Shown piece after piece: positions 699 through 38,781 of a stretch of 64,000 nucleotides of DNA. Source of the DNA: Escherichia coli (GTDB lineage: Bacteria; Pseudomonadota; Gammaproteobacteria; Enterobacterales; Enterobacteriaceae). How positions within the stretch are numbered: position 1 is the stretch's first letter; each line of letters begins with the position of its first letter. The DNA lies in assembly GCF_003019035.1 (NCBI RefSeq), contig NZ_CP027447.1; one strand, 5' to 3'. The notes below the pieces were generated by a model. It saw only the letters and a list, made by a program, of their open reading frames with translations, was not told the DNA's origin and searched no databases. The position numbers and the translations under genes are program-made.

Positions 699-2084
699 TT
701 ACGTTTCGCTCACCGGCGTTCTGTCACCATCATACAACGGCACTTTGCGATAGCGGCGGATCAGATACCACAAATATGCGCCGCCTAACGAAGCCCATAC
801 CAGACCGAGTGTCAGTGACGTTGACTCGAGGTTAACCCACAGCACACCCACCGTCAGCGCGCCAACCAGCGGCATCAGCAAATAGTGGAAGTGATCCTTC
901 CAGCTTTTATTCATTCCTTTACGCCGCCAGAAATGATTAAACACCGACAGATTTACGAAGGTAAATGCCACCAGAGCACCGAAGTTAATCAATGCTGTGG
1001 CGGTAACTAAATCGAAGAACAGCGCCGACAACGCGACAATCCCGACCATAATGACGTTCAGTGCCGGAGTCCGCCATTTCGGGTGCACATAGCCAAACAC
1101 GCGCTCCGGAAACACATTGTCACGCCCCATCACATACAGCAGACGCGACACGCTGGCGTGCGACGCCAGGCCAGACGCTAACGTGTTCACAAACGTGGTA
1201 CAGAGGAAAATCGACTGGAAGAGCTTGCCGCCGACGTACAGCGCAATCTCAGGCAGTGCGGCGTCCGGGTCTTTAAAGCGGCTGATATCAGGAAAGAACA
1301 GCTGCATAAAGAACGACGCAGCGATAAAGATAACGCCGCCGTATACCGCCGTCAGGAAGATGGCTTTCGGGATCACGCGTGCGGCGTCCGGCGTCTCTTC
1401 CGAAAGCGTGGTCACCGCATCGAAACCGAGGAAGGAGAAACAGACAATCGTCGCCCCGGTAATAATCGGGATCAGGTGCGCGTTCTCGCTGATAAACGGC
1501 TGAAGTGACCAGACGGTGCCAACGCCTTCTCCTTTATGCAGTCCCTGAACCACCAGGAAGATAAACACCACCATGATGGAGATTTGCACCAGTACAAACA
1601 GGGTATTGAAGTTAGCAACCAGGTTGACGCTCTTCAGATTCGCGGCGGTTAAAATGGCGACGAAGGTTACCACCCACACCCACGGCGGCACTTCCGGGAA
1701 GAGGGCGGAGAGATAGATTTTCGCCAACAAGACGTTGATCATCGGCAAAAAGAGATAATCCAGCAGCGATGACCAGCCGACCATAAATCCGACGTGCGGG
1801 TTAATCGACTTTTGCGCGTAGGTATAGGCCGAACCGGCTTCCGGAAACTGGCGAACCAGTTTGCCGTAGCTGATAGCGGTAAACAGCACGCCCGCCAGCG
1901 CCAGCAAATAGGACGCCGGAACGTGACCGTCGCTAATGCCGGAGACAATACCAAAAGTATCAAATACGGTCATCGGCGTGAGATAGGCCAGACCCATCAT
2001 CACCACCTGCCACAATTTCAGTGATTTTCGCAGACGGGTTTTGCCAGATTGCGCAGCAATAGTCAGTGGTGAATTAATAGCCAT
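699..2084 (-). CDS. puuP: putrescine importer, APC-family amino acid/polyamine permease
   Basis: 461-aa multi-TM permease; start set at MAINSPL (ATG 2082-2084 preceded by GGAGG) rather than the extended ORF start. Confidence 0.9.
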
Positions 2085-2386
2085 AGTTGCTGCCTCCCCT
2101 GCGTAATAAGGTTTGCGGTCGTGTCGACCTGAAATCAAACCTGTTTAGCAAGGGAAGCAAAGGGGGCGGAGTCCAGTCAGTCGCAGGAGGGGCGCATACG
2201 CAGCCTCCCTCGCCATGCGGGGATTTAATCATCGGCATCATCTCATTTCCTCGTCACAGTCTTAATCGTTAACGGAAGCCCGTTGCCGCCTGCGCTCCAT
2301 AACGCGACATCCGGGAAATGTCTGGATTACCAGCAAATGTCAGGCCTGGCTCCGCTCAGGCCGATGAAACAACCCCGCAAGGGGTA

Positions 2387-3805
2387 TTACGCGTTTTTCA
2401 ACATCCACTCAATTTCTGTTTCTGTGATGAGGCGCTCAAACTGCAACAGCTCATCATTTTTACAGGCGTGATAGACATGGCAGAAGCGTTCGCCTAAATA
2501 GCGGCGCAGGTGATCATTCTCGATAAACTCACCCAGGGCGTCGCTCTGGCGAATCGGGAAGGGTAAGCCTTCCTGTTCCAGCCCGTTACCTTCGACTTCT
2601 TCCTGTAATGGCAGTTCGTTATCAAGGCCATGCAAAATGCCGGCAAAAATCGCCGCCATCACCAGATACGGGTTGGCATCGGCACCCGCCACGCGATATT
2701 CCACGCGGTGATTATGGCGATCGCCGCAGGGAATACGCAGGGCGACGGTGCGGTTGTTATGGCCCCACGACGCCTGCGTCGGTACATACATCCCCGGCTG
2801 GAAGCGGCGATACGAGTTCACGTTTGGTGCCAGCAACGCCATTGATGACGGCATCAGGTCAATCATCCCGGCAAGCATCTTTTTCAGCAGCGGCGAATCT
2901 TCGCCTTCCGCGTCAGAAAGCACGTTCTCGCCACGGTTATTTTGCATACTGATATGGATATGCATCCCGCTGCCCGCGTGCTCTTCATACGGCTTCGCCA
3001 TAAAAGTGGCGTGCATCTTATGCTTTTCTGCCATCAGACGCACCAGGCGTTTTAGTGCCAGCGCATCATCGCAAGCTTCCAGCACGTTATCGGTATGGTA
3101 AAGATTGATTTCAAACTGACCCGGCGAGGCCTCAGCGACCGCGCCATCTGCCGGAATCAGCTGTAACTGCGCCAGTTCATCAATATCATTGAGCACGTCG
3201 GCGAAGTGGTTGAGATTATCAACGGAGTAAACCTGGCTTTGTGTATTGCGGTCATCGGTGCCGGGCGCGCAGGGCGGTTGCAGATACCCTTCAGCGTCGC
3301 GCTGGCGATCCAGTAAATAGAACTCCAGCTCTACCGCTACGACCGGGAACAATCCGCGCTGGCGCAGCTGCTGCCACAGGCGGTTAAGAACGTTCCGCGG
3401 CTCAACGTCAAAGGGAGCGCCATCTTCATCGACCATGGTCAGGAGCATCTGACCTATAAACTCTGGATCGGCGGCAGAAGGGGTTAAGGAACCGAGAACA
3501 GGAACACAGGTACGATCCGGTTCGCCCATTTCCTGACCCAGACCCGCTTCTTCAACTACGTTGCCCAGAATATCCATTGCAAATACCGAGGCCGGGAAAT
3601 AACACCCTTTCTCGAGCTTCTTCAGGCTTGAAACAGGAATACGTTTTCCACGGAAGCAACCATTCAAATCGGTAAGTAAAACATCAACATATTGCGTATT
3701 CGGGTAGCGCTCCAGGTAGCGTTTCACTTCCTGCGTAAAGGCGCTACCCCGCCTCTCTTCTGACTGCTGAACAAAGTTCTCTACTTCAACGATATTGGTT
3801 TCCAT
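2387..3805 (-). CDS. puuA: gamma-glutamylputrescine synthetase (glutamine synthetase family)
   Basis: 472 aa from METNIVEVENF; GS-type catalytic domain; upstream of puuP on the same strand. Confidence 0.9.
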   Translation of the reverse strand: METNIVEVENFVQQSEERRGSAFTQEVKRYLERYPNTQYVDVLLTDLNGCFRGKRIPVSSLKKLEKGCYFPASVFAMDILGNVVEEAGLGQEMGEPDRTCVPVLGSLTPSAADPEFIGQMLLTMVDEDGAPFDVEPRNVLNRLWQQLRQRGLFPVVAVELEFYLLDRQRDAEGYLQPPCAPGTDDRNTQSQVYSVDNLNHFADVLNDIDELAQLQLIPADGAVAEASPGQFEINLYHTDNVLEACDDALALKRLVRLMAEKHKMHATFMAKPYEEHAGSGMHIHISMQNNRGENVLSDAEGEDSPLLKKMLAGMIDLMPSSMALLAPNVNSYRRFQPGMYVPTQASWGHNNRTVALRIPCGDRHNHRVEYRVAGADANPYLVMAAIFAGILHGLDNELPLQEEVEGNGLEQEGLPFPIRQSDALGEFIENDHLRRYLGERFCHVYHACKNDELLQFERLITETEIEWMLKNA

Positions 3806-4016
3806 GATTCTTCGCCTTTGGTTTGTTTTCCGCTCGTTATCAAAGCGTAAAATATAATGACCACCATTCGAATCTGTATGCAAACTAAATGTTTGTTAAA
3901 TGTTAAATTGAGTTTGCAAAAATGAAAACCCACTGCTAGATTGAAAAAATATTGAACATAAAGGTCATTTAAAGCGTAGTAATGGCGATAATTTAGTCCA
4001 CTTTGTGAGATTGAGC
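3806..4016. promoter_or_regulatory. divergent puuA / puuD promoter-operator region (expected PuuR target)
   Basis: AT-rich 211-bp gap between divergently oriented puuA and puuD; exact operator not located. Confidence 0.4.
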
Positions 4017-4781
4017 ATGGAAAATATAATGAACAATCCGGTTATCGGTGTCGTAATGTGCAGGAACAGGCTTAAGGGCCATGCGACCCAGACTCTGCAA
4101 GAAAAGTACCTGAATGCCATCATCCACGCAGGCGGTTTGCCAATAGCGCTACCACATGCGCTGGCGGAACCGTCGTTACTTGAACAACTTTTGCCGAAAC
4201 TCGATGGTATTTATCTTCCTGGTAGTCCCAGCAATGTGCAGCCGCACCTATATGGTGAAAACGGCGATGAGCCTGACGCCGATCCCGGGCGTGATCTTCT
4301 GAGCATGGCGTTAATTAATGCCGCACTCGAAAGGCGCATCCCCATTTTCGCCATCTGCCGGGGTTTACAGGAACTGGTGGTGGCAACCGGTGGTTCGTTG
4401 CATCGCAAGCTGTGCGAACAGCCTGAATTGCTGGAACATCGGGAAGATCCCGAACTGCCGGTGGAGCAGCAATATGCACCGTCGCATGAAGTTCAGGTTG
4501 AAGAGGGGGGATTGCTGTCTGCGTTGTTACCTGAATGTAGCAACTTTTGGGTAAACTCTCTGCATGGACAAGGGGCGAAGGTCGTTAGCCCACGGTTGCG
4601 TGTTGAAGCTCGCTCGCCGGATGGCTTAGTTGAGGCGGTTAGCGTCATCAATCATCCTTTTGCGCTGGGCGTACAGTGGCACCCGGAATGGAACAGTAGC
4701 GAGTACGCGCTTTCGCGTATATTGTTCGAGGGCTTTATCACCGCTTGTCAGCACCATATCGCTGAAAAACAGCGACTCTGA
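4017..4781 (+). CDS. puuD: gamma-glutamyl-GABA hydrolase (class I glutamine amidotransferase-like)
   Basis: 254 aa from MENIMNNPVIGVVM; catalytic Cys in AICRGLQ motif. Confidence 0.9.
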   Translation: MENIMNNPVIGVVMCRNRLKGHATQTLQEKYLNAIIHAGGLPIALPHALAEPSLLEQLLPKLDGIYLPGSPSNVQPHLYGENGDEPDADPGRDLLSMALINAALERRIPIFAICRGLQELVVATGGSLHRKLCEQPELLEHREDPELPVEQQYAPSHEVQVEEGGLLSALLPECSNFWVNSLHGQGAKVVSPRLRVEARSPDGLVEAVSVINHPFALGVQWHPEWNSSEYALSRILFEGFITACQHHIAEKQRL

Positions 4782-4807
4782 CCACTACAGTTTAAGGAAA
4801 TGCAAAT

Positions 4808-5365
4808 ATGAGTGATGAGGGACTGGCGCCAGGAAAACGCTTGTCGGAAATCCGCCAGCAGCAGGGGCTTTCACAACGTCGTGCCGCCGAACTCTCCGGG
4901 CTGACTCACAGTGCTATCAGTACGATAGAACAAGATAAAGTCAGCCCTGCCATCAGTACGCTGCAAAAGCTGCTGAAGGTGTATGGTCTGTCACTCTCGG
5001 AATTCTTTTCCGAGCCGGAAAAACCTGATGAGCCGCAGGTCGTCATTAATCAGGACGACTTAATTGAGATGGGCAGTCAGGGTGTGTCAATGAAGCTGGT
5101 TCATAACGGTAACCCGAATCGCACGCTGGCGATGATCTTTGAAACTTACCAGCCGGGCACAACCACTGGGGAAAGAATTAAGCATCAGGGTGAGGAAATA
5201 GGCACTGTACTGGAAGGTGAAATTGTTCTGACCATTAATGGTCAGGATTATCATCTCGTCGCGGGGCAAAGTTATGCCATTAATACCGGCATCCCGCACA
5301 GTTTCAGTAATACGTCGGCAGGTATTTGCCGAATTATCAGCGCCCATACGCCCACCACGTTTTAA
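4808..5365 (+). CDS. puuR: HTH (XRE) + cupin transcriptional repressor of the puu genes
   Basis: 185 aa; N-terminal HTH (LSQRRAAELSGLTHSAISTIEQ), C-terminal cupin. Confidence 0.9.
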   Translation: MSDEGLAPGKRLSEIRQQQGLSQRRAAELSGLTHSAISTIEQDKVSPAISTLQKLLKVYGLSLSEFFSEPEKPDEPQVVINQDDLIEMGSQGVSMKLVHNGNPNRTLAMIFETYQPGTTTGERIKHQGEEIGTVLEGEIVLTINGQDYHLVAGQSYAINTGIPHSFSNTSAGICRIISAHTPTTF

Positions 5366-5514
5366 TCTTTTTGTTCTGTAAGCCGGGTAAGCGCAATGCG
5401 CCCGGCAATCCATAAAGAATGTCGCCAGAAATAAACGGGCATACGGCCCGGGGATCTCTGCGCCCTGACGTTCACAAACTGCATATATCTGATAGACGTG
5501 AAACAGGAGTCATA

Positions 5515-7002
5515 ATGAATTTTTATCATCTGGCTTACTGGCAGGATAAAGCGTTAAGTCTCGCCATTGAAACCCGCTTATTTATTAACGGTGAATATAC
5601 TGCTGCGGAGGAAAATGAAACTTTTGAAACCGTTGATCCGGTCACCCAGGCACCGCTGGCGAAAATTGCCCGCGGCAAGAGCGTCGATATCGACCGTGCG
5701 GTGAGCGCAGCACGCGGCGTATTTGAACGCGGCGACTGGTCACTCTCTTCTCCGGCTAAACGTAAAGCGGTACTGAATAAACTCGCCGATTTAATGGAAG
5801 CCAACGCCGAAGAGCTGGCACTGCTGGAAACGCTCGACACCGGCAAACCGATTCGTCACAGCCTGCGTGATGATATTCCCGGCGCGGCGCGCGCCATTCG
5901 CTGGTACGCCGAAGCGATCGACAAAGTGTATGGCGAAGTGGCGACCACCAGTAGCCATGAGCTGGCGATGATCGTGCGTGAACCGGTCGGCGTGATTGCC
6001 GCCATCGTGCCGTGGAACTTCCCGCTGCTGCTGACTTGCTGGAAACTCGGCCCGGCGCTGGCGGCGGGAAACAGCGTGATTCTAAAACCGTCTGAAAAAT
6101 CACCGCTCAGTGCGATTCGTCTCGCGGGGCTGGCGAAAGAAGCGGGGCTGCCGGATGGTGTGTTGAACGTGGTGACGGGTTTTGGTCATGAAGCCGGGCA
6201 GGCGCTTTCGCGCCATAACGATATCGATGCCATTGCCTTTACTGGCTCAACCCGCACCGGGAAACAGCTGCTGAAGGACGCGGGCGACAGCAACATGAAA
6301 CGCGTCTGGCTGGAGGCGGGCGGCAAAAGCGCCAACATCGTTTTCGCCGACTGCCCGAATTTGCAACAGGCGGCAAGCGCCACCGCCGCAGGCATTTTCT
6401 ACAACCAGGGCCAGGTGTGCATCGCCGGAACGCGTTTGTTGCTGGAAGAGAGCATCGCCGATGAATTCTTAGCCCTGTTAAAACAGCAGGCGCAAAACTG
6501 GCAGCCGGGCCATCCACTTGATCCCGCAACCACCATGGGCACCTTAATCGACTGCGCCCACGCCGACTCGGTCCATAGCTTTATTCGGGAAGGCGAAAGC
6601 AAAGGGCAACTGCTGCTGGATGGCCGTAACGCCGAGCTGGCTGCCGCCATCGGCCCGACCATCTTTGTGGAGGTAGACCCGAATGCGTCCTTAAGCCGCG
6701 AAGAGATTTTCGGTCCGGTGCTGGTGGTCACGCGTTTCACATCAGAAGAACAGGCGCTACAGCTTGCCAACGACAGCCAGTACGGACTTGGCGCGGCGGT
6801 ATGGACGCGCGACCTCTCCCGCGCGCACCGCATGAGTCGCCGCCTGAAAGCCGGCTCCGTCTTCGTCAATAACTACAACGACGGCGATATGACCGTGCCG
6901 TTTGGCGGCTATAAGCAGAGCGGCAACGGGCGCGACAAATCCCTGCACGCCCTTGAAAAATTCACCGAACTGAAAACTATCTGGATAAGCCTGGAGGCCT
7001 GA
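5515..7002 (+). CDS. puuC: gamma-glutamyl-gamma-aminobutyraldehyde dehydrogenase (NAD(P)-aldehyde dehydrogenase)
   Basis: 495 aa from MNFYHLAYWQDK; ALDH motifs (catalytic Cys in GQVCIAG; ELGGKSA-like EAGGKSA). Confidence 0.9.
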   Translation: MNFYHLAYWQDKALSLAIETRLFINGEYTAAEENETFETVDPVTQAPLAKIARGKSVDIDRAVSAARGVFERGDWSLSSPAKRKAVLNKLADLMEANAEELALLETLDTGKPIRHSLRDDIPGAARAIRWYAEAIDKVYGEVATTSSHELAMIVREPVGVIAAIVPWNFPLLLTCWKLGPALAAGNSVILKPSEKSPLSAIRLAGLAKEAGLPDGVLNVVTGFGHEAGQALSRHNDIDAIAFTGSTRTGKQLLKDAGDSNMKRVWLEAGGKSANIVFADCPNLQQAASATAAGIFYNQGQVCIAGTRLLLEESIADEFLALLKQQAQNWQPGHPLDPATTMGTLIDCAHADSVHSFIREGESKGQLLLDGRNAELAAAIGPTIFVEVDPNASLSREEIFGPVLVVTRFTSEEQALQLANDSQYGLGAAVWTRDLSRAHRMSRRLKAGSVFVNNYNDGDMTVPFGGYKQSGNGRDKSLHALEKFTELKTIWISLEA

Positions 7003-12471: not shown

Positions 12472-12786
12472 ATGTTTAAAAAAGGCTTACTTGCTCTGAC
12501 ACTGGTGTTTTCACTGCCCGTTTTCGCCGCTGAACACTGGATCGATGTTCGTGTTCCAGAGCAGTATCAGCAAGAGCACGTTCAGGGAGCCATCAATATT
12601 CCCCTGAAGGAAGTAAAAGAGCGCATTGCCACCGCCGTTCCGGATAAAAACGACACCGTGAAAGTGTATTGCAATGCCGGACGCCAGTCAGGGCAGGCAA
12701 AAGAGATCCTTAGCGAGATGGGATATACCCACGTTGAGAACGCTGGCGGCCTGAAAGACATCGCAATGCCGAAGGTCAAAGGTTAA
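12472..12786 (+). CDS. pspE: periplasmic rhodanese (thiosulfate sulfurtransferase)
   Basis: 104 aa with signal peptide; rhodanese active-site Cys in VYCNAGRQS. Confidence 0.9.
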   Translation: MFKKGLLALTLVFSLPVFAAEHWIDVRVPEQYQQEHVQGAINIPLKEVKERIATAVPDKNDTVKVYCNAGRQSGQAKEILSEMGYTHVENAGGLKDIAMPKVKG

Positions 12787-12801
12787 CAAATTACTTATTG
12801 A

Positions 12802-12830
12802 GCGGTGTAAACAACGCCGCTTATTCATTT
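12802..12830 (+). terminator. putative intrinsic terminator after pspE
   Basis: GCGGTGTAAACAACGCCGC hairpin followed by TTATTCATTT. Confidence 0.45.
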
Positions 12831-12904
12831 GATAAATCAAAATTAACCCACATTATTATCTCCAGTATCTAATCCTTTCTACAGCTTTCTGGCACAGGAC
12901 AGCA

Positions 12905-14302
12905 ATGAAGCGACTTAAAAATGAACTTAATGCGCTGGTGAATCGGGGTGTCGACAGACATCTGCGCCTCGCCGTAACCGGACTTAGCCGCAGCGGCAAA
13001 ACGGCGTTTATCACTGCGATGGTCAATCAGTTGCTCAATATTCACGCCGGAGCAAGGTTGCCGCTGTTAAGCGCGGTGCGTGAAGAACGGCTGCTGGGCG
13101 TAAAACGCATTCCCCAGCGTGACTTTGGCATTCCGCGCTTCACCTATGATGAAGGGCTGGCGCAGTTATATGGCGATCCACCCGCCTGGCCAACGCCAAC
13201 GCGCGGCGTCAGCGAAATTCGCCTGGCGCTACGTTTTAAATCGAACGATTCGCTGCTACGCCACTTTAAGGATACCTCCACGCTGTATCTGGAGATTGTG
13301 GATTATCCCGGCGAATGGTTGCTCGACCTGCCGATGCTGGCGCAGGACTATTTAAGCTGGTCGCGCCAGATGACGGGCTTACTTAATGGTCAGCGCGGCG
13401 AATGGTCGGCGAAATGGCGAATGATGTGCGAAGGGCTGGACCCGCTAGCGCCTGCCGACGAAAACCGGCTGGCAGACATTGCCGCCGCCTGGACCGAGTA
13501 TCTCCACCACTGCAAACAGCAGGGGTTGCACTTTATTCAGCCTGGGCGCTTTGTCTTGCCGGGAGATATGGCAGGAGCACCCGCGCTGCAATTCTTCCCG
13601 TGGTCGGATGTCGATGCCTGGGGCGAGTCCAAACTGGCGCAGGCCGATAAGCATACCAATGCCGGAATGCTGCGCGAGCGGTTTAATTATTACTGCGAGA
13701 AAGTGGTGAAGGGGTTCTATAAGAATCATTTTCTGCGCTTTGACCGCCAGATTGTGCTGGTGGATTGCCTGCAACCTCTCAACAGTGGGCCACAGGCATT
13801 TAATGATATGCGTCTGGCGCTGACGCAGCTGATGCAAAGTTTCCACTACGGGCAGCGAACCCTGTTCCGGCGTTTGTTTTCACCGGTTATCGATAAGCTA
13901 TTGTTTGCTGCCACTAAAGCAGACCATGTGACCATCGATCAGCACGCCAATATGGTTTCATTACTGCAACAACTGATTCAGGATGCCTGGCAAAATGCGG
14001 CGTTCGAAGGGATCAGCATGGACTGCCTGGGGCTGGCGTCAGTTCAGGCGACCACCAGCGGCATTATTGATGTTAACGGTGAGAAAATCCCGGCGCTGCG
14101 CGGTAATCGACTCAGCGATGGCGCACCGCTCACTGTTTATCCTGGCGAAGTTCCCGCTCGTTTGCCCGGTCAGGCGTTCTGGGATAAGCAAGGCTTCCAG
14201 TTTGAGGCGTTTCGTCCGCAGGTGATGGATGTTGACAAACCGCTGCCGCATATTCGCCTTGATGCTGCGCTGGAATTTTTAATAGGAGATAAATTGCGAT
14301 GA
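12905..14302 (+). CDS. ycjX: YcjX-family P-loop NTPase of unknown function
   Basis: 465 aa; Walker [11 protein letters not shown]; paired with ycjF. Confidence 0.85.
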
Positions 14303-17717: not shown

Positions 17718-18683
17718 ATGAGAACCGTTAAGGTATTTGAGGAGGCCTGGCCCTTACATACCCCGTTTGTGATTGCCCGGGGAAGTCGCAGTGAAGCGCG
17801 CGTGGTGGTGGTTGAACTGGAAGAAGATGGCGTCAAAGGTACGGGCGAATGTACGCCTTATCCGCGCTATGGCGAAAGTGATGCCTCGGTAATGGCGCAA
17901 ATTATGAGCGTCGTGCCGCAATTAGAGAAAGGGCTGACACGGGAGGAGTTACAAAAAATCCTCCCTGCCGGCGCAGCACGTAATGCGCTGGATTGTGCAT
18001 TGTGGGATCTCGCGGCGCGAAAACAGCAGGAATCGCTGGCTGATTTGATCGGCATAACGCTTCCCGGGACAGTTATCACTGCACAGACGGTAGTCATCGG
18101 TACGCCTGATCAGATGGCCAATAGTGCATCAACACTCTGGCAGGCAGGCGCGAAATTACTGAAAGTGAAGCTGGATAACCATCTTATCAGTGAGCGGATG
18201 GTGGCAATTCGCACCGCTGTGCCCGATGCGACGCTGATCGTTGATGCAAATGAATCCTGGCGTGCAGAAGGGTTGGCGGCGCGTTGCCAGCTATTGGCGG
18301 ATTTAGGCGTTGCGATGCTTGAACAACCGCTTCCTGCGCAGGACGATGCGGCACTGGAGAATTTTATTCATCCGTTGCCGATTTGTGCTGATGAAAGTTG
18401 TCATACTCGTAGCAATCTGAAGGCGCTGAAAGGGCGCTATGAGATGGTTAACATTAAGCTTGATAAAACCGGTGGTCTGACGGAAGCGCTGGCGCTGGCG
18501 ACTGAAGCACGTGCACAAGGTTTTAGTCTGATGCTGGGCTGCATGTTGTGTACCTCTCGGGCCATTAGCGCCGCTTTACCGCTGGTGCCGCAGGTCAGTT
18601 TCGCCGATCTTGACGGACCGACCTGGCTGGCGGTAGATGTGGAACCGGCGCTTCAGTTCACGACGGGCGAATTGCATCTTTAG
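17718..18683 (+). CDS. ycjG: L-Ala-D/L-Glu epimerase (enolase superfamily)
   Basis: 321 aa from MRTVKVFEEAW; enolase-superfamily fold; adjacent to mpaA. Confidence 0.85.
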   Translation: MRTVKVFEEAWPLHTPFVIARGSRSEARVVVVELEEDGVKGTGECTPYPRYGESDASVMAQIMSVVPQLEKGLTREELQKILPAGAARNALDCALWDLAARKQQESLADLIGITLPGTVITAQTVVIGTPDQMANSASTLWQAGAKLLKVKLDNHLISERMVAIRTAVPDATLIVDANESWRAEGLAARCQLLADLGVAMLEQPLPAQDDAALENFIHPLPICADESCHTRSNLKALKGRYEMVNIKLDKTGGLTEALALATEARAQGFSLMLGCMLCTSRAISAALPLVPQVSFADLDGPTWLAVDVEPALQFTTGELHL

Positions 18684-19386
18684 GATGCCAGCGCAGCAAG
18701 TTTGCCATCGCAAAGAGATATTTTTCGCTGGCTTCGTCGGAGGAGATGGGTGGAAACTCTGCGGTGATGCAATGCAAGTTGAGATCTGCACACCAACTGC
18801 CGAAAGAGCCAGGCGTTTCATAACCGACGCTGGTTACCAGAGGCAATTCAAACGCCTGGGCCAGCCATTCACCTAATTCGCTGTGTCTGGGATCTTCAAT
18901 ACAGGCTAGCGGATCGTGGAATGAGACCACCCAGGCAGGTTGAATGCGGTGTATAAGTTGGCACAGCGCCTGGGTTTCAGGTTCGGAGCCAGGTTTGTCA
19001 CCTGTCAGTAAAACGACATTACGTTCTTCAGCGGCGCTGTTCCAGCGATAAACTGTTTCACCTTCCTTCCAGTTCGCTGCCGGAAAGTTTCGGTTTAAAT
19101 CCACACCATTAGCATTGGCCCGTAACCCTAACTGGCAGCCGTCAGGATTCACACACAGCACCACATGATGGCGGCGCAAAGACGGTGTCAAAGTCCGCAG
19201 AGCACAGGAGAGCGTGACGATCGAAGAGTTTTCATCACCGTGAGTGCCAGCCAGAATCAAACCACTTTCGTGACTGGCTGCAGGGGCCGGAAACCAGATT
19301 AACGGCGCGCCCAATAATGAACGTCCGTAATGTTCTGTACCGGGCGGAAATGCGCCGCGTTCGGCGCGTGGGCGAGTTACGGTCAT
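18658..19386 (-). CDS. mpaA: murein tripeptide amidase A (M14 zinc carboxypeptidase-like)
   Basis: 242 aa from MTVTRPRAERGAF; HGDE zinc motif; 3' end overlaps ycjG 3' end by 26 bp. Confidence 0.85.
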   Translation of the reverse strand: MTVTRPRAERGAFPPGTEHYGRSLLGAPLIWFPAPAASHESGLILAGTHGDENSSIVTLSCALRTLTPSLRRHHVVLCVNPDGCQLGLRANANGVDLNRNFPAANWKEGETVYRWNSAAEERNVVLLTGDKPGSEPETQALCQLIHRIQPAWVVSFHDPLACIEDPRHSELGEWLAQAFELPLVTSVGYETPGSFGSWCADLNLHCITAEFPPISSDEASEKYLFAMANLLRWHPKDAIRPS

Positions 19387-19568
19387 GATCGTCTCTGGTT
19401 CAGGAAGTATTACAGGCAGTGTTGTGCAAATTTTGCGGATTATCAAATCCTTTTCTTCAACGCTATGTTATCGATCTTGTATCACTTTTTTGCCGGAAGT
19501 TGTTTGCATTTCTTTAAGGCGAAACAAATAATTACGCATCAATTTTAATGTCGGTTAGAGGGAAACTT

Positions 19569-21182
19569 ATGAAGCACTCTGTTTCAGTCACGTGTTGTGC
19601 GCTGTTGGTCAGCAGCATTTCTCTTTCGTATGCTGCTGAAGTTCCGAGCGGCACAGTACTGGCAGAGAAGCAGGAGCTGGTGCGCCACATTAAAGATGAG
19701 CCAGCGTCGCTGGATCCCGCTAAAGCCGTGGGCCTGCCGGAGATTCAGGTCATTCGCGATCTGTTTGAAGGACTGGTGAATCAGAACGAGAAAGGGGAGA
19801 TTGTCCCCGGCGTTGCGACTCAGTGGAAAAGTAATGACAACCGTATCTGGACTTTTACCCTGCGCGATAACGCAAAATGGGCGGATGGCACACCGGTAAC
19901 GGCGCAAGATTTTGTCTACAGCTGGCAACGTCTGGTGGACCCGAAAACGCTATCGCCATTTGCATGGTTTGCCGCGCTGGCGGGAATCAACAACGCACAG
20001 GCGATTATTGATGGTAAAGCCGCGCCTGACCAGCTTGGCGTCACCGCAGTTGATGCCCATACTTTGAAAATCCAGCTTGATAAACCATTGCCGTGGTTTG
20101 TGAATTTAACCGCTAACTTTGCCTTCTTCCCGGTGCAAAAAGCCAACGTAGAAAGCAGTAAAGAGTGGACGAAACCCGGAAATCTGATCGGTAATGGCGC
20201 TTATGTTCTTAAAGAGCGCGTAGTCAATGAAAAACTGGTCGTGGTACCGAATACCCATTATTGGGATAACGCCAAAACGGTGCTGCAAAAAGTGACCTTC
20301 CTGCCAATTAATCAGGAATCCGCAGCCACTAAGCGTTATCTCGCGGGGGATATTGATATCACCGAATCCTTCCCGAAAAATATGTATCAGAAGCTGTTGA
20401 AGGATATTCCGGGGCAGGTTTATACGCCGCCGCAGCTCGGGACCTATTATTATGCGTTTAACACGCAAAAAGGGCCGACGGCAGATCAGCGAGTTCGTCT
20501 GGCATTAAGTATGACGATAGATCGCCGCCTGATGACCGAAAAAGTATTAGGGACGGGCGAAAAGCCAGCGTGGCATTTTACACCAGATGTTACTGCAGGA
20601 TTTACGCCGGAACCTTCGCCGTTTGAACAAATGAGTCAGGAAGAACTGAATGCGCAGGCAAAAACTTTGTTGAGCGCAGCTGGTTATGGTCCGCAAAAAC
20701 CGCTGAAGTTGACGCTTTTGTATAACACTTCAGAAAACCATCAAAAAATTGCGATTGCTGTAGCATCGATGTGGAAAAAGAACCTGGGTGTAGATGTTAA
20801 ATTGCAAAACCAGGAATGGAAAACCTATATCGATAGCCGTAACACCGGCAATTTTGATGTTATCCGCGCCTCGTGGGTAGGTGATTATAATGAACCCTCC
20901 ACTTTCCTGACATTATTAACGTCAACGCATTCCGGGAATATTTCACGCTTTAACAATCCGGCATATGACAAAGTTCTGGCCCAGGCATCGACGGAAAATA
21001 CCGTTAAAGCGCGTAATGCCGATTACAACGCGGCAGAAAAAATCCTCATGGAGCAAGCACCGATTGCACCAATTTATCAATATACCAATGGACGATTAAT
21101 CAAGCCGTGGCTGAAAGGTTATCCCATTAATAACCCTGAAGATGTGGCGTACAGTCGGACTATGTATATTGTGAAGCATTGA
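19569..21182 (+). CDS. mppA: periplasmic murein tripeptide-binding protein (ABC SBP family 5)
   Basis: 537 aa from MKHSVSVTCCALLVSSISLSYA (signal peptide); OppA-like. Confidence 0.9.
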   Translation: MKHSVSVTCCALLVSSISLSYAAEVPSGTVLAEKQELVRHIKDEPASLDPAKAVGLPEIQVIRDLFEGLVNQNEKGEIVPGVATQWKSNDNRIWTFTLRDNAKWADGTPVTAQDFVYSWQRLVDPKTLSPFAWFAALAGINNAQAIIDGKAAPDQLGVTAVDAHTLKIQLDKPLPWFVNLTANFAFFPVQKANVESSKEWTKPGNLIGNGAYVLKERVVNEKLVVVPNTHYWDNAKTVLQKVTFLPINQESAATKRYLAGDIDITESFPKNMYQKLLKDIPGQVYTPPQLGTYYYAFNTQKGPTADQRVRLALSMTIDRRLMTEKVLGTGEKPAWHFTPDVTAGFTPEPSPFEQMSQEELNAQAKTLLSAAGYGPQKPLKLTLLYNTSENHQKIAIAVASMWKKNLGVDVKLQNQEWKTYIDSRNTGNFDVIRASWVGDYNEPSTFLTLLTSTHSGNISRFNNPAYDKVLAQASTENTVKARNADYNAAEKILMEQAPIAPIYQYTNGRLIKPWLKGYPINNPEDVAYSRTMYIVKH

Positions 21183-28398: not shown

Positions 28399-29301
28399 CA
28401 GATACCTCGCGTCCAGGGAAAATTGAGCGCGGTGCGCGCCAGCGTTTCGACGGCAATAGCGAGAACCTGCTCGTCAAAATCGAATTTTTCATTGTGATGA
28501 CCTGCCGCCAGCTGTGTGCCAAATACCATGTAGGAGGCTTGCCCTTGATGTCGCTGCACGCGGGCCATCATTAATGTGGCATCTTCGGAACCCGCAGGCG
28601 CTTCAACACGTTCAATGGCCTGATTGACCCCCGCGACCTGAGCCGCCTGGATTTGCAACCATGCGACCCATTGCGGCGAAGGAGAACTGGCGGTAGCTGC
28701 ACCCATCAGACGAGTTTCAACGCCGACACCATACATGGTTGCTGCGCCCTGAATCGCTTGTTGTGCACGGTCAAAAACATATTGATTAATGACGTCGCTG
28801 GCCCCGCGTGTTTCCACTTTCAGCAACGCTGAGGCGGGAACAACATTACGACCGCTTCCTGCCTGCATAACGCCCACGTTTACTCTGGAAGCGCCTTCGC
28901 TGTGCGGGGCGATGGCTGACATCCTGCTCTTCACTGAAATCCAGCGCGTCCATATCGACACGGAAAGCCATCACCGGACCGGGGCGACCGGTATCCAGGG
29001 TAGCGACGATGCCAGTGAAACCGCCTTCAAAAGCCGCAATCCATTGTTCTAGCGCCCCCTGTTGACGAGCGCGCTCGAATTCGCGTTGTAGAGTGAATTC
29101 ATCAGGTAATCCCATCCGGCTACTTTCATTAACGACTTCGCGGCCCAGCGCCAGTGAATAACCGAGCTGGTGCAATTCTTCCGCAACAACGGTGGCAGTG
29201 CGGAATTCCACCCAGCCAGACTCTGCATAGTGGTGAAAATCACGTCGCCAGTACGATAATTTTGGGGCAAGCGAATTAATAAATTGATTCAAAGACTCCA
29301 T
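28398..29301 (-). pseudogene. abgA: abgA (M20D amidohydrolase subunit A) disrupted by internal deletion and frameshift
   Basis: N-terminal 5' part (MESLNQFINSLAPKL...DMDALDFSEEQDVSH) and C-terminal part (AIAPHSEGASRVNVGVMQAGSGRNVVP...FPWTRGI) lie in different frames; the central metal-binding segment expected for M20D enzymes is absent; total span 904 bp versus about 1.3 kb expected. Confidence 0.75.
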
Positions 29302-35749: not shown

Positions 35750-36685
35750 TTATTTCACTTCAACCACATTCAGTCGTAACTCATCCAACTGATTTTCATC
35801 TTCTTCAGGCTGCCAACCCGCCGGTTGTAGAGGGATCTCTTCGCGATCAAACGCCAGATCACCCCCGTTAACCACTTCAGAACCGTGGGTAATGCCTTTG
35901 AAATCGAACAGGTTGGTATCGCACAGATGCGACGGCACCACATTCTGCATCGCGCTGAACATCGTCTCGATACGCCCCGGATAACGTTTATCCCAGTCAC
36001 GCAACATGTCAGCAATCACCTGACGTTGCAGGTTAGGCTGTGAACCGCACAGGTTGCACGGAATAATCGGGAACGCTTTTGCATCGGCAAAGCGCTGAAT
36101 ATCTTTCTCGCGGCAGTAGGCCAGCGGACGAATAACGATATGTTTGCCATCATCGCTCATCAGTTTCGGAGGCATACCTTTCATCTTGCCGCCGTAGAAC
36201 ATATTTAAGAACAGCGTTTGCAGGATATCGTCACGATGGTGACCCAACGCGATCTTCGTCGCCCCCAGTTCCGTTGCGGTGCGATAAAGGATACCGCGAC
36301 GAAGACGAGAACACAGTGAGCAAGTGGTTTTGCCCTCCGGAATCTTCTCTTTCACGATACCGTAAGTGTTCTCTTCCACAATCTTGTACTCAACGCCCAG
36401 CTTTTCAAGATACTCGGGCAGAACGTGTTCCGGGAAGCCCGGTTGTTTTTGATCGAGGTTAACAGCCACCAGCGAAAAATTGATTGGCGCGCTTTGCTGC
36501 AAATTGCGCAGAATTTCCAGCATGGTATAGCTGTCTTTACCCCCGGAGAGGCAAACCATGATGCGATCGCCTTCTTCAATCATATTGAAGTCAGCAATGG
36601 CTTCGCCCACGTTACGACGCAGACGTTTTTGTAATTTGTTCAGGTTGTATTGTTCTTTCTTACTAATTTCTTGATTTTGCGACAT
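35750..36685 (-). CDS. ttcA: tRNA 2-thiocytidine(32) synthetase (PP-loop ATPase)
   Basis: 311 aa; PP-loop SGGKDS; CxxC pairs; appears intact. Confidence 0.92.
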
Positions 36686-36826
36686 TTAAAAGCGACTCAA
36701 TTCGTTATATGGCATCAGAAGAGTATGCGTCATGCCGGAACGCCCAGCATAAGAAATCTGATATAAAAACTGTGGCGTGTATGGTACGGATTAGAGGGGA
36801 AAATGTCAGCACATTTGCGAAATGAA

Positions 36827-36853
36827 TCAAAAAGCCCGCAGCAATGTGCGGGC
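36827..36853 (-). terminator. intrinsic terminator after uspF
   Basis: minus-strand hairpin GCCCGCACATTGCTGCGGGC followed by TTTTTGA. Confidence 0.7.
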
Positions 36854-36860
36854 GTTAGTG

Positions 36861-37376
<516 letters not shown>

Positions 37377-37402
37377 TTAGATCAAAGGAGGAAGAATAAG
37401 CA

Positions 37403-37427
37403 GAAAAAGCCCGCCATAACAGCGGGC
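37403..37427 (-). terminator. intrinsic terminator after ompN
   Basis: minus-strand hairpin GCCCGCTGTTATGGCGGGC followed by TTTTTCTG. Confidence 0.65.
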
Positions 37428-37435
37428 AGGAGGAT

Positions 37436-38554
37436 TTAGAACTGATAAACCAGACCTAAAGCGACAATATCATCGGTAGAGATGCCGTTGGCAGCGTAGA
37501 AGCTGTCATCTTCATCCAACAGGTTGATTTTATAGTCAACGTAGGTGGACATATTTTTGTTGAAATAGTAAGTCGCGCCAACATCGGCGTATTTAACCAG
37601 ATCTTTATCACCGTCGGTACCGACCAAATCCTTGCCTTTAGACATCAGGAAAGAGACTGCCGGACGCAGCCCAAAATCGAACTGATACTGCGCAGTAACT
37701 TCAAAGTTCTGGGTTTTGTTGGCAATCGTATTTGTTGAATCACCGTAAGGTGTCATGTTACGCGTTTCAGAATACATGGTCGCCAGGTAGATATTGTTAG
37801 CATCGTATTTTGCCCCGGCAGTCCAGGCGTCAGCCTTATCGCCTTTTGCGGTAGAGAATTCAGCCTGCTGGTTAGTGCGATCGGAGCTGGTATAGGCGGC
37901 ACCAAAACTCATGCCCATACCTAAGTCGTAGGTAGTGGAGATGCCAAAACCGTCGCCATTGGCGTTCTTAATGTTTCGATCACCACCGTTTGCGGTACCT
38001 TCTTGCTCATGGGTGACCTGGTTTTCATTCGCGCCCTGGTACTGTAACGCAAAATTCAGACCATCAACCAGACCGAAGAAATCAGTATTACGATAGGTTG
38101 CTACGCCATTGGCTCGACCGGTCATATAGTTATCGGCTTTGGTATAAGAGTCACCACCGAATTCCGGTAGCATATCGGTCCAGCCTTCGATGTCGTACAT
38201 TACGCCATAATTACGACCATAGTCGAATGAACCCAGGTCACCAAATTTCAGACCGGCAAAAGCAAGACGAGTCCAGGAATCACCTTTATCACCTTCAGAG
38301 CCATTAGCCTGCACGTTATATTCCCACTGGCCATACCCAACCAGTTGATCCGTGATTTGCGTTTCACCCTTAAAACCAAAACGCACGTAAGTTTGATCAC
38401 CATCACTATTGGTATTATCAGAAAAATAATGCAGGCCATCAACTTTGCCATACAGATCTAATTTGTTGCCGTCTTTATTATAAACTTCGGCTGCATGTGC
38501 AGCACCTGCGGCGAGCAGGGCAGGAATTAAAAGTGCCAGTACTTTGCTTTTCAT
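37436..38554 (-). CDS. ompN: outer-membrane general porin (OmpC/OmpF family)
   Basis: 372 aa with signal peptide [21 protein letters not shown] and C-terminal ...GLVYQF beta-barrel signal. Confidence 0.88.
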
Positions 38555-38781
38555 TGAATAAATCCTTTAGTTATTTTATTTGCCTTTTATCCCCATTTCG
38601 GGGAGTGAAAACATCCTAAAGGAGAAGTTCAGTTAGCCGATAAATATCATTTGTTACGCCTTAAGTAAAACCTTAATCAAATAATTCCTCTGAAATGATA
38701 ATAAGTCTGGTGAATGTATCGAAGATAATACATACAAAATAAAAATTATACTTTTAATTTGCTATACGTTATTCTTCGCGG

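Follow-up and report, generated by a model that had tools for sequence, protein, structure and literature searches.

The 182-bp spacer between the divergent genes mpaA and mppA in the stretch of DNA analysed here (64,000 bp from Escherichia coli SCU-301; hereafter, the window) is very probably the uninterrupted form of a site at which most E. coli have a foreign cassette. Under this explanation, the divergent promoter region would be ancestral and Enterobacteriaceae-wide, and the cassette would have been inserted later, into K-12 and ~96% of E. coli. In SCU-301, a strain of phylogroup F and ST967 (PMC11251922), mpaA and mppA would each be transcribed from their own conserved core promoter, as in other enterobacteria, and the PgrR-repressed ycjY-ymjDC-mpaA read-through of K-12 would be absent. 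The features of the locus are, in window coordinates:

17718-18683, plus strand: ycjG, L-Ala-D/L-Glu epimerase, third gene of the murein-peptide catabolic cluster.
18658-19386, minus strand: mpaA, murein tripeptide amidase, 242 aa, intact (open reading frame and translation; Pfam Peptidase_M14).
19387-19568, no strand: divergent mpaA/mppA spacer, 182 bp, uninterrupted (empty-site) allele.
19416-19430, mpaA-proximal: conserved block GCAGTGTTGTGCAAA, at least 95% conserved.
19441-19448, mpaA-proximal: conserved block TATCAAAT, at least 95% conserved.
19416-19448, minus strand: candidate mpaA promoter, -35 TTGATA, 17-bp spacer, -10 AACACT (deduced from the conserved blocks).
19482-19511, no strand: 30-bp segment TCACTTTTTTGCCGGAAGTTGTTTGCATTT, single copy, marking the insertion point (alignment to K-12).
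19503-19508: conserved block TTTGCA, the predicted mppA -35, at least 95% conserved.
19522-19532: conserved block AAACAAATAAT, containing the predicted mppA -10, at least 95% conserved.
19503-19532, plus strand: predicted mppA sigma-70 promoter, -35 TTTGCA at 19503-19508, 18-bp spacer, -10 AATAAT at 19527-19532 (consensus scan and conservation).
19558-19562, plus strand: mppA Shine-Dalgarno sequence GAGGG, conserved.
19569-21182, plus strand: mppA, murein tripeptide ABC transporter periplasmic binding protein, 537 aa, intact (Pfam SBP_bac_5, 5.7e-95).

The start codon of mpaA (minus strand) extends to 19386 and the first base of the mppA ATG is 19569, thus the spacer is exactly 182 bp long, and the initial annotation's reading of an adjacent, divergent pair with 182 bp between the starts is confirmed. 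The encoded proteins are 99% (MpaA) and ~100% (MppA) identical to their K-12 counterparts, and in near-identical records the same gene is annotated mpaA and its neighbour mppA; ycjG is convergent with mpaA and overlaps its 3′ end. According to the passages of PMC6448482 that cite Uehara and Park (2003) and Maqbool et al. (2012), the K-12 orthologues are an amidase acting on L-Ala-gamma-D-Glu-meso-DAP (MpaA) and the protein on which uptake depends (MppA). The sequence features of the ancestral enterobacterial ycjG-mpaA/mppA locus were found in the window: an intact MpaA (M14 zinc carboxypeptidase/amidase, ~240 aa), an intact MppA (family-5), divergence, a short gene-free spacer and the conserved blocks. 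For pgrR, neither an open reading frame nor a tblastn match was present between mpaA and mppA in the window; ycjY and a short-chain dehydrogenase/reductase (SDR) gene (ymjC) upstream of and co-oriented with mpaA were not found there by alignment or tblastn; and no PgrR or YcjY homologue was detected anywhere in the 64 kb (tblastn, E≤1e-20).

Alignment to K-12 defined the difference between the two alleles. The K-12 content given in the initial annotation (the LysR regulator PgrR/YcjZ, the hydrolase YcjY and small ymj ORFs) agrees with the MG1655 annotation of the mpaA-ymjC-ymjD-ycjY-pgrR-mppA locus (b1326-b1329), in which ymjC, ymjD, ycjY and pgrR lie between mpaA and mppA start codons 2,628 bp apart; the adjacency is therefore not shared, and 2,446 bp of K-12 are absent from the window. 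The alignment consists of two blocks overlapping by 30 bp: (i) a left block, in which window 19187-19511 aligns up to position 4724 of the K-12 locus (L001), and (ii) a right block, which runs from window 19482 onward and begins at L001 7141. The K-12 insert is accordingly bounded by imperfect 30-bp direct repeats (L001 4695-4724 and 7141-7170; 28 of 30 positions identical), of which the left copy is TCACTTTTTTGCCGGAAGTTGTTTGCATTT and the right copy has GAT instead of GCC. The single copy of the window is identical to the K-12 left copy (GCC), and the second copy of the K-12-type locus is missing. The same junctions were found in E2348/69, Sakai, an APEC O78:H4 strain and SMS-3-5.

Counting one repeat copy, the insert measures 3,111 bp in E2348/69 and 3,991 bp in O157 Sakai, and the cassette ranges from 2.4 to 4.0 kb across E. 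coli. Its order is an SDR gene (ymjC), one or two alpha/beta hydrolase genes (ycjY and the ymjD remnant), a divergent pgrR and, between pgrR and mppA, a 93-bp queH pseudogene fragment. The longer versions in E2348/69 and Sakai explain the small K-12 ORFs as deletion remnants: in ymjC, a 665-bp deletion has joined the initial 46 codons of an NAD(P)-binding SDR gene (212 aa) to the old spacer, and ymjD is what remains of the 5′ end of a second hydrolase gene, present as a full-length pseudogene in Sakai.

Outside the insert, the two alleles are nearly the same. Upstream of mpaA, K-12 and the window match at 124 of 125 positions; upstream of mppA, they agree over 87 bp except for the 2-bp repeat allele (GCC versus GAT), so that the mppA core promoter is the same in both. 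The cassette was inserted immediately upstream of the mppA -35, and the repeat is the duplicated segment that carries this -35. The K-12 state is an insertion between the two predicted promoters that duplicated the segment with the predicted mppA -35. What K-12 has in addition is ymjC, ymjD, ycjY, pgrR and the second repeat; the window is without these, hence without PgrR and without a read-through operon from ycjY to mpaA.

The elements of the 182-bp spacer were examined by promoter scanning and by conservation. Four blocks are at least 95% conserved across genera (77 aligned spacers), and the window has every one of them (the mppA -35 and -10, GCAGTGTTGTGCAAA and TCAAAT; 19416-19448 plus 19503-19534). 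The predicted mppA promoter was the sole consensus sigma-70 promoter detected by a scan of the spacer; the candidate mpaA promoter scores under the threshold of that scan, and its -10, AACACT, is weak. An Rfam search of the spacer for known RNA elements returned no meaningful match, and operator-like inverted repeats were not found in the 182 bp. Candidate sigma-54, CRP, FNR and TyrR sites in the spacer were rejected, as they either misfit the consensus by eye or matched at positions that are unconserved in other genera. For the conserved mpaA-side block, as it appears in the aligned spacers, no binding factor is proposed.

For the ancestral state, one genome per bacterial species was scanned for MpaA, after which MppA, PgrR and YcjY were located at each locus; 79 loci at which both start codons could be placed form the denominator. 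In 76 of these 79 species representatives, mpaA and mppA stand next to each other in divergent orientation, with a spacer of 138-233 bp (mode 184), in genera that include Citrobacter, Enterobacter, Klebsiella, Raoultella, Kluyvera, Leclercia and Kosakonia; the spacer is exactly 182 bp in E. albertii, E. whittamii and three more Escherichia species. The three exceptions are Escherichia sp. E1V33, which has a K-12-type cassette, and Salmonella enterica subsp. arizonae and subsp. diarizonae, which have a cdt islet. Since 76 of the 79 are adjacent and carry the conserved promoter blocks, the mpaA/mppA adjacency is, as judged from gene order and conservation, the ancestral enterobacterial arrangement, and the K-12 state an insertion. 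The K-12 genes had initially been described as missing from the window. They are indeed absent relative to K-12, but the implied direction of change was wrong: they are an acquired cassette, and the site in the window is one that was not inserted or was re-emptied. On the other flank of mppA, ynaI and mppA are separated by ~3.3 kb of extra sequence in three loci of Escherichia spp. and E. whittamii (L004, L007 and L010; ~2940-6208); the corresponding distance in E. coli is ~50 bp.

The composition and relatives of the cassette point to a foreign origin. Its GC content is 43.8%, versus 50-52% in the flanks. PgrR homologues with 87-89% identity are scattered among Klebsiella, Raoultella, Kluyvera, Citrobacter, Enterobacter and some Salmonella, one of them labelled plasmid-borne. 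In K. aerogenes and R. ornithinolytica, the operon divergent from pgrR has five genes, which encode two hydrolases, an NmrA-like SDR, a short-chain dehydrogenase and an Oxidored_FMN (OYE) reductase. The neighbours of such pgrR-type modules vary between genomes, and in one case the module lies amid the conjugation genes TraG, TraC and RAQPRD (an ICE context). The full module has identical internal coordinates in four genomic contexts (L095-L098, positions 1282-6900), which suggests that it may move as a discrete unit. The Sakai-type cassette is colinear with the Klebsiella-type module, at 79% nucleotide identity over 3.6 kb, whereas the adh_short and OYE genes of the K. aerogenes and R. ornithinolytica module are missing from the E. 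coli cassette. Thus, given its low GC and its colinearity with a scattered module found in varied contexts, the E. coli cassette is, on sequence comparison, a truncated and horizontally acquired copy of a putative mobile accessory module with its own LysR regulator.

Searches of 5,426 complete E. coli genomes found the cassette in 5,244 (~96%) and left 182 without a match; a junction-specific search found the intact empty junction in 165. Of the latter, 135 share at least 99% identity with the window, and the remainder comprise several other haplotypes. SCU-301 matches the window at 100% over 25 kb, in reverse orientation. Empty-site strains other than SCU-301 include SCU-172 (phylogroup F, ST379) and the strains named ST648, IMT16316 and MS6198, as well as 2017-02-2CC and N96, whose haplotype is divergent and whose mppA-proximal sequence is outgroup-like. 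In 2017-02-2CC and R32_14_1F, which is likewise a divergent empty-site strain, mpaA and mppA are just 95-96% identical to mainstream E. coli, and a 2,043-bp hypothetical gene lies beside tpx at the usual tyrR position (L087 and L090; 1-1561). The empty site is ordinary strain variation, namely a presence/absence polymorphism of a small accessory cassette that is already visible in public annotations.

The cassette has also moved within Escherichia. In Escherichia sp. E1V33 (L005 5373-8001), it is 97-98.5% identical to that of K-12, with flanks of 85-91% identity, and it has the K-12-specific 665-bp deletion; the switch points fall within the spacer, on the left ~70 bp from mpaA and on the right at the right repeat. 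As read from this identity profile, the E1V33 cassette is a clear case of import across species through homologous recombination. Between K-12 (phylogroup A) and E2348/69 (B2), dS is 0.03-0.04 for ycjY and pgrR and 0.10-0.12 for mpaA and mppA. This lower dS of the cassette than of its flanks indicates that the cassette coalesces more recently and was spread by homologous recombination.

How the lineage of the window came to hold an empty site is a matter of history only, as the allele and its action are equal in either case. The reading that we prefer, though with just better than an even chance, is that the ancestral allele in this lineage was never occupied or was restored by recombination. 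Both the repeat copy of the window (GCC) and the T at 19469 match the outgroup alleles; the T is also common to cassette-bearing APEC-type strains. The alternative is a secondary loss, in which a cassette-bearing ancestor underwent precise excision (by recombination or slippage) between the 30-bp direct repeats and so regenerated the ancestral spacer; this we consider somewhat less probable than an even chance. The flanking repeats, identical at 28 of 30 positions, are consistent with such an excision, and so is the single repeat of the window where relatives have two, although a never-occupied site would look identical. Furthermore, the cassette haplotype of the APEC O78:H4 strain equals the window without a mismatch over 433 bp on the left (19079-19511) and 208 bp on the right (19495-19702); at least 60 cassette-bearing genomes have the exact left haplotype of the window, including T at 19469; and cassette-bearing phylogroup F strains are known (SMS-3-5). 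The near-fixation of the cassette in E. coli (5,244 of 5,426) and the empty-site strain PT62, which combines K-12/Sakai-like flanks with a single repeat of the right-copy allele GAT, likewise argue for loss.

Against a loss, the window copy is wholly of the left-copy and outgroup allele (GCC), with no chimeric scar, and 2017-02-2CC and N96 preserve a divergent empty-site haplotype whose mppA-proximal sequence is outgroup-like. Moreover, as the cassette spreads by recombination and coalesces later than its flanks, its near-fixation need not mean that it was present in the common ancestor; the SMS-3-5 cassette is nearer to a B2 cassette, with 12 differences over 3,081 bp, than to that of the APEC O78:H4 strain (26), which fits import into phylogroup F. 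Two candidate markers of this history were rejected: (i) the T/C polymorphism at 19469 (C in K-12, E2348/69 and Sakai; T in the window and outgroups) as a mark of a never-inserted site, because at least 60 cassette-bearing genomes, many of the T-carrying ones being APEC or poultry isolates, have T; (ii) the GCC/GAT repeat dinucleotide as a decisive scar, because the empty-site strains PT62 and AR_0013 have GAT and GTC, respectively, and SMS-3-5 has GAT in both copies. The 82-bp left haplotype of the window is found exactly in 212 genomes.

Two further explanations of the empty site fared much worse. One holds that pgrR and ycjY reside elsewhere in the genome, leaving control of the pathway unchanged. 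A few plasmid matches of the cassette do occur in the collection (six places), and nothing else was found that speaks for relocation, which is highly improbable. A composite megablast query, which joined 2 kb of the window to 1.6 kb of ycjY-pgrR, matched the SCU-301 chromosome at one place, through its window-derived part alone, versus two places in cassette-bearing relatives, and no cassette copy was found on that chromosome. The search beyond the window that the initial annotation had called for, run on the chromosome, thus gave no match for ycjY-pgrR, and the chromosome of the strain is without PgrR. In addition, 182 genomes lack any cassette match, compared with 165 that have the empty site, and the 64-kb window holds no homologue. 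The other, an assembly artefact in which the cassette collapsed out at the 30-bp repeat, can be set aside as the least probable of all, since, although repeats can in principle cause collapses, 165 independent complete genomes show this junction, as does every other Escherichia species except one, and a repeat of 30 bp falls far short of what would be needed to collapse 2.4-4 kb of unique sequence.

The regulatory consequences expected for SCU-301 are narrow. In the passages of PMC5934670 that cite Shimada et al. (2013), the PgrR regulon comprises ycjG, ycjXF-tyrR and ycjY-ymjDC-mpaA, with mppA not among the targets given there. These passages and those of PMC4797297 place a PgrR SELEX peak in the ycjY/ycjZ spacer and, after Shimada et al. 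(2013), describe PgrR as a repressor of the ycjY-ymjDC-mpaA operon in K-12. The sequence upstream of mpaA (125 bp) and the mppA core promoter are common to both alleles, and mppA lies outside the regulon as listed in those passages; native control of mpaA and mppA is therefore expected to be kept. The predicted effect of the empty site would be limited to the loss of PgrR-repressed ycjY read-through into mpaA, plus any PgrR effect on ycjG and ycjXF-tyrR. The idea that absence of the regulator would alter control of mpaA and mppA thus holds in part: read-through into mpaA is expected to be lost, but the native control of the pair, with its shared core promoters, would stay, and mppA is not part of the regulon in the source passages (PMC5934670). 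It is in the K-12-type allele, not in that of the window, that 2.4-4 kb come between mppA and the conserved mpaA-side block.

A broader interpretation, which we offer tentatively and at just under an even chance, is that PgrR may not be the ancestral regulator of peptidoglycan recycling. It may instead be the resident LysR regulator of an acquired and truncated hydrolase/SDR/OYE module of detoxification type that came to lie upstream of mpaA, with control of mpaA as a by-product of read-through; the cassette may be spreading among Escherichia via homologous recombination anchored in the 30-bp segment with the mppA -35. If so, phylogroup F strains like SCU-301 would be natural PgrR-free controls with the ancestral wiring. 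The empty site in itself matters little. Empty-site strains offer a natural comparison for the contribution of PgrR to the expression of mpaA and ycjG, and the PgrR regulon of K-12 cannot safely be taken as species-wide, the regulator being a late, lineage-specific acquisition that is absent from the phylogroup F lineages ST648, ST967 and ST379 and from nearly all other enterobacteria.

Several other differences were noted along the window. At 12472-12905, pspE is followed directly by ycjX; the ycjM-ycjW/ompG sugar-utilisation block, found at this position in K-12, is absent. At the same point, related phylogroup F strains have an extra 8.8 kb that includes ycjM and ycjT, and SMS-3-5 has ycjW beside ycjX. 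At ~28400-29300, abgA of SCU-301 is a frameshifted and shortened pseudogene (904 bp versus 1,311 bp), and a ~400-bp deletion relative to AR_0077 lies at ~28913 in the abgA region. AR_0077, which is identical to the window over 2.6 kb but was rejected as its source because overall identity is 99.1%, matches at ~99% up to 36.7 kb, differs in the region beyond, and has a Rac-like prophage at ttcA; in the window (~35750-38560), ttcA is directly followed by uspF and an OmpN-like porin gene (annotated ompC), with no Rac-type prophage at ttcA. An intact 5,964-bp autotransporter gene lies between pdxI and ydbL (~48320-54280); its K-12 counterpart, ydbA, is IS-disrupted. Lastly, ynbD (~61180-62470) is annotated with an internal stop.

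The locus was finally compared with related systems. The LysR module of Klebsiella and Raoultella, absent altogether from the window, appears to represent the type of source from which the K-12 cassette derives. In S. enterica subsp. arizonae and diarizonae, the same mpaA-mppA spacer holds a cdtA-cdtB-cdtC (cytolethal distending toxin) islet, whose cargo is unrelated to the K-12 cassette (L023 5449-7677 and L025; Pfam CDtoxinA twice plus Exo_endo_phos). There the mpaA-proximal conserved block is kept, whereas the mppA-proximal promoter blocks are replaced, and the left junction of the islet in L025 falls within the counterpart of the 30-bp segment. The mpaA-mppA spacer thus looks like a recurrent insertion point. 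The pairs of E. albertii, E. whittamii, Citrobacter, Enterobacter, Klebsiella, Raoultella and Kluyvera, among others, have the same arrangement and the same blocks as the window, from which they differ by ordinary sequence divergence only.
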